Below, piece by piece: positions 10,238 to 16,680 of a stretch of DNA of 39,498 bases. The notes beneath the pieces are model-generated. The model searched no databases and had not been told where the DNA came from. It saw only the letters and a program-made list of their open reading frames with translations. Within the stretch, counting starts at the first letter, position 1, and every line of letters begins with the position of its first letter. Source of the DNA: Nitrospirota bacterium. Its GTDB lineage: Bacteria; Nitrospirota; Thermodesulfovibrionia; Thermodesulfovibrionales; Dissulfurispiraceae. Location of the stretch: positions 1 to 39,498 of the forward strand of contig JBFMCP010000030.1 of the NCBI GenBank assembly GCA_040754455.1, written 5' to 3'. Position numbers and translations under genes: made by a program.

Positions 10238-11731
10238 ATGCGTCCACTGGTAACGGCAGTTGATATAACACTGGATAGACCTTCTCCCTCTGACAAAAGG
10301 GCGGACAGAGAGCGGTTGCTCGACGGTCTTGTTGCTCAAGGCATCACCGCCCCTGTCGAAATAGATATTGACCTGCTCCGAATATTGCCTTCCACCTTGA
10401 GAGCACACGATTTCAGACTACAGCCTACGCTGGGCTTTACAAGAGATATGGCAAGAGTCCTCTCTTTCGGCGGGAGGCCGGTCTATGCACTCGCTGTTGA
10501 TATCGGCACGACCAACATCGTTGCTTCGCTCGTCGATGTACTCAACAACAAAAAAATATCGACACTTGAATACGAGAATCCCCAGGTCGAATTCGGACTC
10601 GATGTCCTCACGCGAGTCCACCTGGCGATGAGCGGGAAGGCTGCTACATTGCATGAGCACCTTGTTTCGGGCTTGAACACCCTTATCCAGAAACTGTGTG
10701 CAGCTCAAGGCATCACCGCTTCCGACATTTACGCTGCAGCCTTTGCGGGCAACACGATCATGACCCACTTCCTTTTGAATCTTCCGGTCCATAACATCCC
10801 TGTTGAGCCTTATATACCCGCAGCGCACAGGATCGATTTTATGGAACCGAAGGATATCGGCCTCAAAATTAATGACCGGGGGATCATTTATGTCTTCCCC
10901 AACGCAGGAAGTTATGTTGGCGGCGACATCATCTCGGGAATCCTCGCTTCAGGTCTCTATAAGGAAGAGCAGCCGACCATGCTCATAGATGTGGGCACGA
11001 ATGCTGAAATCGTGCTGGGCTGCAGCGAATGGATCATGGTAGGCGCAGGCGCTGCGGGTCCTGCACTCGAGGGCGGTATTTCCGAGATCGGCATGCGCGC
11101 AGCAGAAGGCGCTGTCTATAATGTGGAGATCGACAAAAACAGCCATGAAGTACACATGAAGATTATCGGAAACAGCGAGCCCCGCGGCATCTGCGGCACT
11201 GGCATGATCGCGTTGGTTTCGGAGCTCTATACGAAGGGGATCATCAATCAGCAGGGCAAATTCATCGGCTTCCCGGAGAGGATCAGGGAGGTCAATGGCC
11301 GGCAAGGATTTGTCCTCTACGAATCAGACACGGTCTCACTGATTATCAAGGATACGGATATCGATAATTTCTTGCGGTCGAAGGCCGCCATGTTCTCTTC
11401 GCTCTATGTAATGGTGAAGTCCGTCGGCTTACGGTTTGGAGAGATTCACAAAATCTACATGAGCGGCGCCTTCGGTGCAGGTATCGATGCTGATAAGGCG
11501 GTTGCCATCGGTATGATCCCCGACATCGAGCGCAGCAGGCTTATCGCTATCGGGAATTCCTCGCTCAAGGGAGCGGAGATGCTGCTCATGGAGCGGGAGT
11601 TGCTTCCGGCAATCGACAGGATAGGTGCAATGATCACCTATAAGGAAATGAATACCGAGGGAGACTTTATGAAAGAGTTCCCTGCGGCACTCTTCCTACC
11701 GCATACCGATCCCGAAGTGCTTAAGGGCTAG
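10238..11731 (+). CDS. ASKHA ATPase, RACo/DUF4445 family (reductive activator of corrinoid proteins) lacking the N-terminal [2Fe-2S] domain
   Basis: AVDIGTT, YVGGDI, LIDVGTNAE, AAGPALEG, GICGTG, GAFG and GNSSL motifs. Confidence 0.88.
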   Translation: MRPLVTAVDITLDRPSPSDKRADRERLLDGLVAQGITAPVEIDIDLLRILPSTLRAHDFRLQPTLGFTRDMARVLSFGGRPVYALAVDIGTTNIVASLVDVLNNKKISTLEYENPQVEFGLDVLTRVHLAMSGKAATLHEHLVSGLNTLIQKLCAAQGITASDIYAAAFAGNTIMTHFLLNLPVHNIPVEPYIPAAHRIDFMEPKDIGLKINDRGIIYVFPNAGSYVGGDIISGILASGLYKEEQPTMLIDVGTNAEIVLGCSEWIMVGAGAAGPALEGGISEIGMRAAEGAVYNVEIDKNSHEVHMKIIGNSEPRGICGTGMIALVSELYTKGIINQQGKFIGFPERIREVNGRQGFVLYESDTVSLIIKDTDIDNFLRSKAAMFSSLYVMVKSVGLRFGEIHKIYMSGAFGAGIDADKAVAIGMIPDIERSRLIAIGNSSLKGAEMLLMERELLPAIDRIGAMITYKEMNTEGDFMKEFPAALFLPHTDPEVLKG

Positions 11732-13034: not shown

Positions 13035-13565
13035 CTATGCGGCTTCTTCTTTTAAAAACTCGGTGATCGGCGGCAACTCGCTCAAATTCTTGAGCCCGAA
13101 ATACTGCAGGAACTCCTTGGTCGTCCCGTAAAGGAACGGTCTGCCGGGTGACTCTTTTTTCCCCACAATCTTGATAAGACGTTTATCGAGCAGGCTCTTG
13201 ACCGCTCCATCCGAGTTCACCCCACGGAGCTGGTCGACCTCCAGCTTGGTAACCGGCTGTTTGTAAGCAATAATCGCCAGCGTCTCGAGTGCCGATGTCG
13301 TCAGCTTATTCGACTGCGTGATATTTTTAAACCGCTTGAGCCAGACGGCATACTCAGGATGAGTGACCATTTGGTAGCCGTCGGATATCTCGGCAATGAG
13401 CAAGCCTGCGTTTCTCTCACGGTACTCAACGATCAGCTCATCCATCAATCTGCGTATTTCCTGTTCCTGAAGATCCGTCGCCTTGGCGATACCGGCTGCG
13501 GTGACGGGTTCACCGGCAACAAAGAGCATCGCTTCGAGGAGTGCCTTTTTTTGCATATCTTCCAT
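13035..13565 (-). CDS. scpB: SMC-Scp complex subunit ScpB
   Basis: LEAMLF, ALETLAIIAYKQP, RGVNSD and GRPFLYGTTKEFLQYFGL. Confidence 0.95.
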   Translation of the reverse strand: MEDMQKKALLEAMLFVAGEPVTAAGIAKATDLQEQEIRRLMDELIVEYRERNAGLLIAEISDGYQMVTHPEYAVWLKRFKNITQSNKLTTSALETLAIIAYKQPVTKLEVDQLRGVNSDGAVKSLLDKRLIKIVGKKESPGRPFLYGTTKEFLQYFGLKNLSELPPITEFLKEEAA

Positions 13566-13651
13566 AGGTAGCGATTATACCTAATAGAGCTCTTGAATTT
13601 CAAATTAAAACTTAACTATTATAAGGTACAGCGACAGGAGGTAACAGTAAC

Positions 13652-14455
13652 GTGAAGCATGTAACGGCAGCAGTTCTTATGCTCATCGGTTTCGCTCTCA
13701 TCGCAATCCCCTCCGCACGTGACGCCGGAGCCTTCAGTGCCGGCGGATGTGATGGCGATTGCAAAAAATGTCATAGCCTTTCGAGAGAGGAAGTAGACGG
13801 GATTTTGAAGAAGATAAATGTACCGGATGCCAAAATTCTGGATGTCAGGCTCAGTCCGGTGAAAAGCCTTTGGGAAATCACCATCGACGATAAAGGAAAG
13901 AGAGGTCTTTTCTATGTCGACTTCTCAAAAAAGTATATTGTCGATGGGAGAATCATAGAGGTCAGGACCGGCTCGAACAAAACGCAGGAGAGCTACGAAA
14001 AGCTCCAGCCGAGAAAGAAAGTCGACGTATCCAAAATCCCGCTGAAAGATGCCTTGACGATGGGGAATGCGAAAGCCCCGAAAAGGGTGGTTGTCTTCAC
14101 CGATCCTGATTGACCGTACTGCGGGAAACTCCATCAGGAGATGGAGCAGGTGGTCAAGGAACGAAAAGACATCGTCTTTTATATTAAACTTTTTCCTTTA
14201 AAGATGCATAAAGATGCCTATTGGAAATCGAAGAGTATCGTGTGCAAGAAATCGCTCAGGATGCTCGAAGATAACTTTATGCAAAAGCCGATTCCGAAAG
14301 TCGAGTGCGACACCACAGAGGTCGATGCAACGATCAAGCTTGCCGAATCGCTGGGCATCACCGGCACCCCCACGCTTGTTCTCCCCGGCGGCAGAGTGCA
14401 TTCCGGGACATTGCCTGCAAAGCGACTGATCGAGCTCATCGACGGGAGGCAATGA
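13652..14455 (+). CDS. dsbC: DsbC-family thiol:disulfide isomerase with in-frame UGA (putative selenocysteine 154, UxxC) and an N-terminal CxxCH; 267 aa if read through
   Basis: ORFs 13652-14113 and 14141-14455 share a frame and join as VFTDPD-TGA-PYCGKLH. Signal peptide, DsbC dimerisation-like region, GITGTPT cis-Pro motif and AGGAGG RBS. Confidence 0.85.
14111..14156 (+). promoter_or_regulatory. Putative bacterial SECIS hairpin downstream of the in-frame UGA
   Basis: CTCCATC-AGGA-GATGGAG, a perfect 7-bp stem (14129-14146) with a G-containing loop 22 nt after the UGA. A lower stem TGACC/GGTCA is also possible. Confidence 0.6.
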
Positions 14456-15300
14456 GCGCCAGCCCCGAAATCCTCATTGTCTTTCTGTCTGCCTCGGCCT
14501 TTCTCGTTGCGCTCCTCCTCGCTGTGCTGCTCTTGCTGCGCCTCGTGAAAAAGAGCGAGCCTGCTCCCGAACGTTTTGAGATGGGCACGGTCATGGGAGC
14601 GTTCAATGCACTCGGAAGCGAGATCCAGTCGCTCAAGGATCAACTGGTGATCAAGGAGCGCCTCGCCGCCCTCGGTGAAATTTCAGCAGGTATTGCCCAT
14701 GAGTTCAGAAATCCTCTTGGCGTTATCGCAGGGTATGCAAAGCTGCTGCTCAAAGAGCTTGAAGCTGATGACAAGCGCCGGGAGGTGGTGCAGGCAATCC
14801 TTAATGAGGTCCAGGAGCTGAACGGTATAATGGAGGAGCTCCTTAAATTTTCACGTTCCGAGCCGCTCAACAACGAGCGTTTAAACCTTCAAGAACTTGT
14901 TAAAGATACCATTGCGAGCATGCCGGAAGGAAAAGGGAATATCCACCTCTCTCCTTCATCAGAAGTCATAATCAGGGGCGATGCAACGCTGCTCAGGCAG
15001 GCCATAAAAAATCTCCTTTATAACGCCCTCGAGGCAGGTGACCATGTCGTGGTGGCGATCGAGAAAGAACCATCACCAGCCGATAACATAATCGCCATTG
15101 CAGTGCAGGACAATGGCAAGGGAATTCCCGAAGAGGAACTCACCAAGGTATTCCTGCCGTTCTATACGACGAAAAGAGGGGGTACCGGGATAGGACTTGC
15201 CCTGGTCCAGAAAATTGCCATGGCACATGGCGGAAGCGTCAGCGTTGAGAGCCGGGAAGGAAAGGGCAGTACGTTTCGTCTGTTACTGCCGGCGCCATAG
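14452..15300 (+). CDS. Sensor histidine kinase (single N-terminal TM, HisKA + HATPase)
   Basis: AHEFRNPL H-box, NLLYNA, DNGKGI, FYTTK and GTGIGL. ATG 14452 overlaps the dsbC stop (ATGA) after GGAGG. Confidence 0.92.
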   Translation: MSASPEILIVFLSASAFLVALLLAVLLLLRLVKKSEPAPERFEMGTVMGAFNALGSEIQSLKDQLVIKERLAALGEISAGIAHEFRNPLGVIAGYAKLLLKELEADDKRREVVQAILNEVQELNGIMEELLKFSRSEPLNNERLNLQELVKDTIASMPEGKGNIHLSPSSEVIIRGDATLLRQAIKNLLYNALEAGDHVVVAIEKEPSPADNIIAIAVQDNGKGIPEEELTKVFLPFYTTKRGGTGIGLALVQKIAMAHGGSVSVESREGKGSTFRLLLPAP

Positions 15301-15306
15301 GTACAT

Positions 15307-16680
15307 ATGAAGAATATTCTCATCATAGAGGATAAAAAGAGCATGGCTGACATGCTCAGCCGGACTTTTGAGGCCGAGGGGCTTACCGTCACGACGGCCT
15401 CAACGGTCAAAGACGGCCTCGCCCATCTCTCCTCGGATATGATCGACGTTGTCCTAACTGATCTCAAGCTGCCTGATGGCGACGGTATGGAAATCGTGAA
15501 GGCTGCCCGTGAGAGCACGCCCTTTCTTCCGATTATCGTTATGACCGCTTTCGGGAGCATCGAGGTTGCGGTGAAGGCGATCAAGACAGGGGCATACGAT
15601 TTCATTGCCAAACCTTTTGATCCTGATCATGCTCTGCTGGTAGTAAAAAGGGCGCTTGCCGAGCGCGGTACACAGAAAGAGAACCTCGTGCTCAAGAGTG
15701 AATTTTCGAAGTTCCTGAAGATGCCCGAGATCATCGGCGTCAGCGCGCAATGGAAAGCGATCATGGACCAGGTGCGAAAGGTCGCCTCCCTGAAGACGAC
15801 GGTCCTTATCCTCGGCGAGAGCGGTACCGGGAAAGAGCTGATTGCGCGTGCAATTCATCATTTAAGCCCGCGGGCGAAGGACTCTTTTGTTGCGGTCAAT
15901 TGTGCAGCTATCCCGAAGGAGCTCATCGAGAACGAGCTGTTCGGTCATGAGCGTGGCGCTTTTACCGGTGCCGGCGAGATAAAGATCGGCAAGTTCGAGC
16001 TCGCCGACCGTGGTACGATCTTCCTCGATGAGATCGGCGATATGGAGCTTTCGCTCCAATCAAAACTCCTGAGGGTTCTCCAGGAAAACGAGATCGAACG
16101 GGTAGGCGGTACAAAAACAATAAAGGTCGACTTGAGGGTTATTGCCGCCAGTAACAAGGATCTCGGCAAGGCGGTCGAGGCCGGCAGCTTCAGGGAAGAC
16201 CTGTTCTATCGGTTGAATGTGTTCCCATTGGTGATCCCTCCGCTGCGGGAACGAAGGGAAGATATTATTCCTCTTGCAAAGCATTTCGTTTCGCTCTTCT
16301 CAAAAGAGATGAACAAACCGGCTCCCGCCTTTTCACCCGAGACAGAGGAGATGCTTCAGTTGCACGAATGGAAAGGGAACATACGGGAGCTCAAGAACGT
16401 CACCGAGCGCGCCGTCATTCTCTGCGACAGTGCCGTCCTGCTCCCTGCGCATTTTGATTTCGGTAAAATATCGAGGAATGCAGATGCTCAGGAGCCTGGA
16501 CCGGATGCGCCGCTCAGCGAGGTCGCCCAGGCAGCGCTCAGAAATGCGGAGACGGCGAAGATACGAAGTGTACTGCTACAGACCCACGGGAACAAGAGCA
16601 GGGCTGCCGAAATACTTAAAGTGAGTTACAAGACCCTCCTGACCAAGATCAGGGAATACGGCCTCGATGATTCACGGTGA
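15307..16680 (+). CDS. NtrC-family sigma54-dependent response regulator
   Basis: Receiver domain (TDLKLPD, KPF), GESGTGKE, GAFTGA and Fis HTH. Confidence 0.95.
   Translation: MKNILIIEDKKSMADMLSRTFEAEGLTVTTASTVKDGLAHLSSDMIDVVLTDLKLPDGDGMEIVKAARESTPFLPIIVMTAFGSIEVAVKAIKTGAYDFIAKPFDPDHALLVVKRALAERGTQKENLVLKSEFSKFLKMPEIIGVSAQWKAIMDQVRKVASLKTTVLILGESGTGKELIARAIHHLSPRAKDSFVAVNCAAIPKELIENELFGHERGAFTGAGEIKIGKFELADRGTIFLDEIGDMELSLQSKLLRVLQENEIERVGGTKTIKVDLRVIAASNKDLGKAVEAGSFREDLFYRLNVFPLVIPPLRERREDIIPLAKHFVSLFSKEMNKPAPAFSPETEEMLQLHEWKGNIRELKNVTERAVILCDSAVLLPAHFDFGKISRNADAQEPGPDAPLSEVAQAALRNAETAKIRSVLLQTHGNKSRAAEILKVSYKTLLTKIREYGLDDSR

Follow-up and report, generated by a model that had tools for sequence, protein, structure and literature searches.

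A contig of a Nitrospirota bacterium in the family Dissulfurispiraceae (JBFMCP010000030.1, assembly GCA_040754455.1) carries a gene for a DsbC-like protein in which a TGA codon stands exactly where the first catalytic cysteine is expected. Does this codon mark a dead gene, a cysteine read by an unusual tRNA, or selenocysteine (Sec, U)? Within the window, by which we mean the whole stretch of 39,498 nucleotides that was analyzed (positions 1 to 39,498, forward strand), a single reading frame runs on the + strand from GTG 13652 to TGA 14453-14455. Its sole interruption is TGA 14111-14113, across which it reads VVVFTDPD-U-PYCGK. A preliminary description of this DNA had noticed two open reading frames (ORFs) in one frame, separated by TGA alone (FTDPD-*-PYC), and had proposed a candidate exported selenoprotein with a U-P-Y-C motif. 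The arrangement of the frame is confirmed, and the proposal is supported by the codons found at this position in homologues, by a hairpin linked to TGA and by the Sec machinery of the genome. We conclude that 13652-14455 is very probably one intact gene encoding an exported DsbC-family thiol:disulfide oxidoreductase with Sec as its attacking residue (U154-P-Y-C157).

Under translation table 11 the gene is cut into ORFs of 153 amino acids (13652-14113) and 104 amino acids (14141-14455). The N-terminal and C-terminal halves are each recorded as separate predicted proteins in public collections, one source naming the C-terminal half DsbC; standard pipelines therefore do split the gene, as had been suspected when it was first described as recoded. 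Both halves were also described as intact, and this holds: neither the second cysteine pair nor the GTPT loop varies among 12 aligned sequences, and the N-terminus resembles a signal peptide.

The UGA codon and its hairpin among relatives

Of 41 related genomes, counting the source genome itself, 39 proved to encode the protein in a six-frame search. This returned 54 strong matches, 29 with one internal TGA, 24 without a stop and one with TAA. All 29 TGA matches were read, and in every one the TGA falls at the active-site column, where it gives the motifs UPYC, UPFC, UPHC, UPWC, ULYC and, in one case, UPFS. The remaining matches have TGC or TGT (TGY) at this column, and one or more Sec forms were found in 22 of the 41 genomes. 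Another 80 named contigs, gathered with retrieval patterns favouring Cys forms and mostly from Nitrospirota/Thermodesulfovibrionales/Dissulfurispiraceae with some Syntrophales, Desulfuromonadales and Nitrospinota, added 6 TGA and 76 TGY homologues. Removal of four duplicates left 125 distinct homologues, with TGA at the active-site column in 34 and TGC or TGT in 91. The TGA genes occur in both paralogue groups. Homologues thus keep TGA or TGY at exactly the codon singled out in the preliminary description.

Immediately downstream of the UGA lies a selenocysteine insertion sequence (SECIS) element, a perfect hairpin of CTCCATC (14129-14135) and GATGGAG (14140-14146) closed by an AGGA loop (14136-14139), exactly as first described. 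The isolated hairpin folds at -9.3 kcal/mol; the 71 nt around it fold at -22.6 kcal/mol (z = -2.55), and 3 of 200 shuffled sequences fold as well. We scored the stem in the homologues at a fixed register, +19 to +25 and +30 to +36, counted from the U of UGA. All seven pairs form in 33 of the 34 TGA genes and six of the seven in the remaining one, whereas full pairing is seen in 6 of the 91 TGY genes. The stems of the TGA genes are identical in 31 of 34, and their loops are AGGA (25 genes), GGGA (3), TGGA (3), CGGA (1), GTGA (1) and AGGT (1), so that 32 of 34 have the form NGGA. The hairpin is conserved together with TGA and has decayed in the Cys forms. In an earlier set of 109 homologues the association of hairpin and TGA gave a Fisher p of 8e-16, a value that is too strong, since related sequences do not count as independent. 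Among 18 aligned TGA genes all 126 of 126 stem cells pair, and two of the seven pairs show a compensatory double change, a result reached by 3 of 500 shuffles. One of the compensated changes is in the window's own stem, which has C-G for U-A (CUC...GAG vs CUU...AAG).

The Fig. 2 legend of a 2026 review (PMC13188914) summarizes the bacterial SECIS (bSECIS) model of bSECISearch, with a loop of 3-9 nt, an upper stem of 4-16 bp and a G in the first two loop positions, the element being placed 16-37 nt from the UGA with a minimum free energy of -7.5 or lower. Set against the four criteria of this legend, the hairpin here lies within the model, having a loop of 4 nt, a stem of 7 bp, G at loop position 2, a spacing of 22 nt and an energy of -9.3 kcal/mol. 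The G at position 2 of the window's loop is followed by another G. The SECIS element of Escherichia coli fdhF has a bulged nucleotide. Compared with the bSECIS consensus, the present element is unusually uniform within its family, and no bulged nucleotide is evident. A scan of 13400-14700 against Rfam at E <= 1 returned no match, as expected, although it was not checked whether Rfam models such an element. An intrinsic terminator was also considered for this hairpin and rejected; its stem is not followed by a T-run, and a terminator scan reports no such site on the + strand.

A recent TGY-to-TGA nonsense mutation, raised as an alternative in the preliminary description, would make the gene a pseudogene and the hairpin a by-product of coding for the conserved peptide LHQEMK. 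One base does separate the two states, the orthologue in the same genus having TGC; the hairpin does overlap conserved codons; and a perfect stem is also present in the 6 of 91 Cys-form genes mentioned above. Yet 34 distinct genes share TGA at one column, and they come from both paralogue groups and from no fewer than 22 of the 41 related genomes; the stem that is intact in nearly all of these genes decays at synonymous sites in Cys genes. The TGA genes keep the codons CTT CAT CAG GAG ATG AAG, and of three Cys genes listed with LHQEMK, two (L055 and L117) have synonymous codons that break the stem and one (L097) keeps it perfect. The compensated double change in the window's own stem also speaks against a by-product of coding. 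Identity to the same-genus orthologue is 71% upstream of the UGA and 86% downstream. The part after the UGA is thus no less conserved than the part before it, and on this the idea of a nonsense mutation fails.

Variation among strains bears on the same point. Contigs from four public runs, belonging to four studies, show no difference from the gene at 14111-14113 or in the hairpin (the contig of run X8 stops at 14115, short of the hairpin). A contig from run X5, of another study, is 97% alike with 21 differences and keeps both the TGA and the hairpin; of its seven changed codons after the UGA, six are synonymous and one is nonsynonymous. The TGA is therefore not an error of assembly, nor is it a mutation that has newly inactivated the gene. 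The alternative of a recent nonsense mutation is accordingly disfavored, and we regard it as scarcely credible.

A maximum-likelihood tree of 107 homologues, built with the UGA/TGY codon masked, requires at least eight changes between Sec and Cys, at least four of them forced by well-supported branches; shuffled states require 16.9 on average.

Three further observations concern members of the family. The six Cys-form genes with a perfect SECIS-like stem are L026, L045, L049, L063, L097 and L107, four of which also keep the NGGA loop; these genes may be recent Sec-to-Cys conversions. The source genome has a paralogue, a DsbC-like selenoprotein gene of 255 amino acids on another contig (G000:C3:26125-26892, - strand, equal to L134:1626-2393), whose product is 51% identical and has the motifs SDPDUPYC and CSKCH; its hairpin, CTTCATC-AGGA-GATGAAG, is the same SECIS. 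Homologue L167 (G030:C1:2087594-2088556) has U-P-F-S, with Ser for the resolving Cys, lacks the N-terminal CxxCH and has an intact hairpin; this could be a form of the family with one selenol only.

Selenium machinery and the decoding of UGA

The genome (3.27 Mb in 92 contigs, 100% complete by marker estimate) contains the machinery that Sec insertion at this codon calls for, and which had been suggested as the first thing to look for. Genes for selA (626 bits), selB (376 bits) and two copies of selD (344 and 328 bits) all score above their cutoffs, and a tRNA-Sec with anticodon UCA is present (68 bits; ARAGORN call SeC(tca)). ARAGORN finds 48 tRNAs in the whole genome, among which tRNA-Sec is the only one with a UCA anticodon and tRNA-Trp has CCA. 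The two selD genes have one in-frame TGA each (G000:C21:48405-49331, - strand, and G000:C37:23899-24813, + strand), which would give two predicted Sec-containing selenophosphate synthetases in one genome. A global reassignment of TGA to Trp, Gly or Cys was considered and rejected: TGA terminates 3 of 12 nearby ORFs, the selenoprotein gene's own stop included, tRNA-Trp has CCA, and UCA occurs in tRNA-Sec only.

The other alternative put forward in the preliminary description was that the UGA is read as Cys by a specialized tRNA, which here would mean recoding of the SelC* type by a tRNA-Cys resembling tRNA-Sec. This deserves attention, as Mukai et al. (2017; PMC5389517) report SelC* tRNA-Cys from Thermodesulfovibrio and Nitrospirae, in which the anticodon is GCA or UCA, and demonstrate UGA-to-Cys decoding for the UCA form. 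A tRNA-Sec-like tRNA that matches the SelC* tRNA-Cys so described is indeed encoded inside a selenium-metabolism gene cluster of this genome (G000:C21:54195-54289, - strand, equal to L133:9196-9290; 58 bits with the Rfam tRNA-Sec model, discriminator base U73, encoded CCA). Its anticodon is GCA, which reads UGC and UGU and not UGA. Only one SelB-class factor scores above the cutoff in the genome, with no second selB* found, and the full Sec pathway is present and used by the two selD genes. Reading of UGA 14111 by a Cys-tRNA fails because the only tRNA with a UCA anticodon among the 48 is the canonical tRNA-Sec; this alternative is disfavored, and we consider it highly improbable.

Within its cluster (L133:1-10220), the SelC*-type tRNA is flanked by a selenium-metabolism LysR regulator and by a double-cubane reductase with its activase, and the cluster continues with YdjY, a rhodanese, SelD(U), YedF and a 'dicluster near Sec' oxidoreductase. 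A canonical 75-nt tRNA-Cys(GCA) is also present in the genome, on contig C29.

The DsbC-like protein and its proposed mode of action

The protein has a DsbC fold. The best Foldseek matches of an AlphaFold2 model are the DsbC structures of Salmonella (4I5Q), E. coli (1EEJ) and Yersinia (4NPB), for which the probability is 1.00 and the alignments span 223-233 columns; the thioredoxin domain of the model mostly exceeds 85 in predicted local distance difference test (pLDDT), and a helix at residues 2-17 coincides with the signal-peptide region. In a phmmer alignment with 1EEJ, FTDPD-[U]-PYC-GKLH is paired with FTDIT-C-GYC-HKLH, so that U154 takes the place of the first Cys of CGYC, C198 and C219 are aligned with the second Cys pair, and GTPT is aligned with GTPA. 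The presence of a DsbC_N domain places the protein in the DsbC branch. A Pfam DsbA match spans residues 146-190 only, the DsbG equivalog NF008657 reaches no more than 36.8 bits where its cutoff is 124, and the DsbG-like selenoprotein model NF041057 is absent from the NCBIfam matches at E <= 0.01. Likewise, the NCBIfam DsbC equivalog NF008129 gives 67 bits, well below its cutoff of 215. The protein is a DsbC-family oxidoreductase, predicted from its sequence to be exported, and is not an equivalog of E. coli DsbC.

Features of the gene, its product and its operon are collected in Table 1.

Table 1. Positions of the selenoprotein gene, its parts and the genes that follow it in the window
Feature	Position	Strand	Basis
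Candidate sigma-70-like promoter, TTGAAT-18-TATTAT, 9/12	13593..13622	+	Consensus match alone; 2 sites in region vs 0.8 expected
Shine-Dalgarno sequence AGGAGG, 10 nt upstream of GTG	13636..13641	+	Read directly
Complete coding sequence, DsbC-like selenoprotein, 267 codons + TGA stop	13652..14455	+	
Predicted Sec-type export signal peptide, aa 1-27, ...ARDAGA|FS	13652..13732	+	Read from sequence: K2, hydrophobic core aa 6-19, AGA 25-27
Conserved C33-x3-C37-x2-C40-H41 (CXXCH, haem-c-attachment-like)	13748..13774	+	Invariant in 12-sequence alignment
DsbC_N dimerization domain, aa 56-111	13817..13984	+	Pfam PF10411, 33.2 bits vs cutoff 25
Thioredoxin-fold catalytic domain, aa 145-262	14084..14437	+	Pfam PF13098 (Thioredoxin_2), 61.5 bits vs cutoff 27
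UGA selenocysteine codon (aa 154), opening the U-P-Y-C redox motif (14111-14122)	14111..14113	+	Aligned with E. coli DsbC
SECIS hairpin, 7-bp stem CTCCATC/GATGGAG, loop AGGA	14129..14146	+	22 nt between UGA and loop
Second, structural Cys pair, C198 (14243-14245) and C219 (14306-14308)	14243..14308	+	Invariant in 12-sequence alignment
cis-Pro loop G238-T239-P240 (GTPT)	14363..14371	+	Invariant in 12-sequence alignment
Histidine kinase (HisKA + HATPase_c), ATG overlapping selenoprotein TGA stop (ATGA)	14452..15300	+	
Sigma-54-dependent response regulator, third gene of conserved block	15307..16680	+	

In the mechanism that we propose, SelB with GTP and Sec-tRNA-Sec(UCA) would bind the 7-bp hairpin with its AGGA loop, 22 nt past UGA 14111. 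Delivery of Sec to this UGA would compete with release factor 2, and the ribosome would go on to the true stop, TGA 14453. The mature protein, once exported, would probably dimerize via DsbC_N. Sec154 would then attack the disulfides of its substrates and form a selenylsulfide with C157, which would be resolved, so that the protein may act as a reductase or an isomerase, with disulfides reduced or reshuffled. The electron donor for its re-reduction could be one of the CcdA/DsbD-type membrane proteins of the genome, in which three DsbD_TM-family genes were found.

Sec insertion competes with release factor 2 in bacteria, and UGA 14111 might therefore act mainly as a stop or attenuator. The cell would then make chiefly a fragment of 153 amino acids with the signal peptide, the CXXCH motif and the dimerization domain, and full-length protein only when selenium is at hand, as in a selenium-dependent switch. 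Such a fragment would hold complete modules, and, with the selenoprotein stop overlapping the kinase start, read-through could couple to translation downstream. Against this stand the Cys-form orthologues that lie in the same operon context and make nothing but the full-length protein, and we found no evidence for a function of the fragment alone. We give very little credence to a UGA that serves mainly as a stop; a selenium switch would be a quantitative variant of Sec insertion at UGA 14111 and is compatible with it.

A feature without a counterpart in the aligned E. coli DsbC chain is the N-terminal C-x3-C-x2-CH, which comes straight after the predicted signal peptide. C33, C37, C40 and H41 are invariant in the 12-sequence alignment, in which the motif of the window's protein is C37-K-K-C40-H41, and CxxCH is present in 119 of the 120 top database homologues. 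The genome has genes for cytochrome-c assembly; no cytochrome Pfam domain was found in the protein. A literature search of titles and abstracts found no description of a DsbC with an N-terminal CXXCH. One could imagine the family as a hybrid of haem c and selenothiol, in which the C-x3-C-x2-C-H would bind covalent haem (or a metal) and exchange electrons with U-x-x-C, the protein serving as periplasmic redox-sensing partner of the co-transcribed kinase and sigma-54 regulator. We think this unlikely.

Several points weigh against a Sec-containing DsbC-type enzyme and have to be set beside the evidence given above. Five of the seven stem pairs are invariant in the 18 TGA genes, and because these never vary, the covariation comes down to two single-sequence events; moreover, the stem also codes for LHQEMK, a conserved peptide that itself constrains part of the sequence. 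The nearest relative, from the same genus, is a Cys form (TGC) with a decayed hairpin, and Sec is dispensable for the function of the family, given that this closest relative uses Cys. The full-length structure model is moderate (mean pLDDT 75.9, predicted template modeling score 0.57). An E. coli-type DsbC function is not assured, because of the low score with the NCBIfam DsbC equivalog. Finally, selenium incorporation and a full-length product are what we infer from comparative sequence data, and a search of public runs found no RNA run with the gene, a result that is uninformative on expression. Even so, a single gene with Sec at position 154 remains by far the best account of this locus.

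Known selenoproteins, the operon and wider significance

A 'thiol:disulfide interchange protein' family of selenoproteins with PF13098 and a UxxC motif (example WP_011366075.1) is listed as 'predicted with high confidence' in a table of the 2026 review (PMC13188914). The same family is tabulated by Zhang et al. (2006; PMC1794560) for Syntrophus aciditrophicus, Geobacter metallireducens and G. uraniumreducens. With the family as presented there, the window's protein shares its best Pfam family, a Sec-first UxxC, the character of a thioredoxin-fold thiol oxidoreductase and the existence of Cys homologues; among Syntrophales and Desulfuromonadales the protein has relatives of the Cys form. Membership in the published PF13098 UxxC family is likely, as judged by Pfam family and motif. 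A tie to the published Geobacter example is not established, because a sample of Desulfuromonadia yielded Cys forms only: no Sec form was found among 121 genomes, 100 of which have a homologue at E <= 1e-20. One match in that sample (G057) had been scored as containing one TGA, and this was discarded as the gene's normal stop, the active site being CPYC.

DsbG-like and DsbA-like selenoproteins have also been catalogued (Zhang and Gladyshev; PMC1088965, PMC13188914). These are periplasmic proteins with a Dsb-type thioredoxin fold and UxxC, and the window's protein, itself predicted to be exported, resembles them in fold and motif; it differs in having DsbC_N and in giving no NF041057 match at E <= 0.01. 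With E. coli DsbC (1EEJ), the periplasmic disulfide isomerase, it shares the combination of DsbC_N and thioredoxin domains, the VFTD..C.YC.KLH context, a cis-Pro loop and a second pair of Cys residues, but identity is about 23%, Sec replaces the first Cys and the gene lies in an operon with a two-component system.

A Dsb-type thioredoxin-fold protein with Sec for Cys is thus of a kind already known, whether or not it belongs to the same published family. The passages on this family in PMC13188914 and PMC1794560 make no mention of a distribution in Nitrospirota/Thermodesulfovibrionia, of an N-terminal CXXCH or of a conserved SECIS with an NGGA loop, and our literature search of titles and abstracts found no description of a DsbC-like selenoprotein in Nitrospirota. 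What is left as new is the N-terminal C-x3-C-x2-C-H, the two-component operon, the frequent switching between Sec and Cys, and the SelC* tRNA-Cys(GCA) in a selenium cluster.

These findings matter for annotation and for enzymology. Standard gene callers cut this gene in two, and likewise the Sec forms of 22 or more of the 41 related genomes searched; for this Nitrospirota lineage both the selenoproteome and the redox proteome of the periplasm are therefore under-counted. The family also offers a natural experiment on Sec versus Cys in a disulfide isomerase, as syntenic orthologues switch at least eight times and the SECIS decays after each loss; such switching permits paired biochemical comparison. 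In addition, a compact and highly uniform SECIS of 18 nt could help the engineering of Sec insertion.

The gene order around the selenoprotein gene, with scpB on the - strand followed by the dsbC-like gene, the histidine kinase gene and the gene for the sigma-54 response regulator, is conserved in TGA and TGY relatives. The three-gene block with divergent scpB was found in most of the same-family relatives searched. The histidine kinase (14452-15300) has a single hydrophobic segment near its N-terminus, and a periplasmic sensor domain is not evident. A comparison of ORF lists made with and without TGA read as U revealed no other apparent TGA-interrupted gene in the window. Elsewhere in the window, at 10238-11731 on the + strand, lies a gene of the RACo type (reductive activator of corrinoid proteins) with linker, middle and C-terminal domains, beside a gene for a major facilitator superfamily (MFS) transporter.

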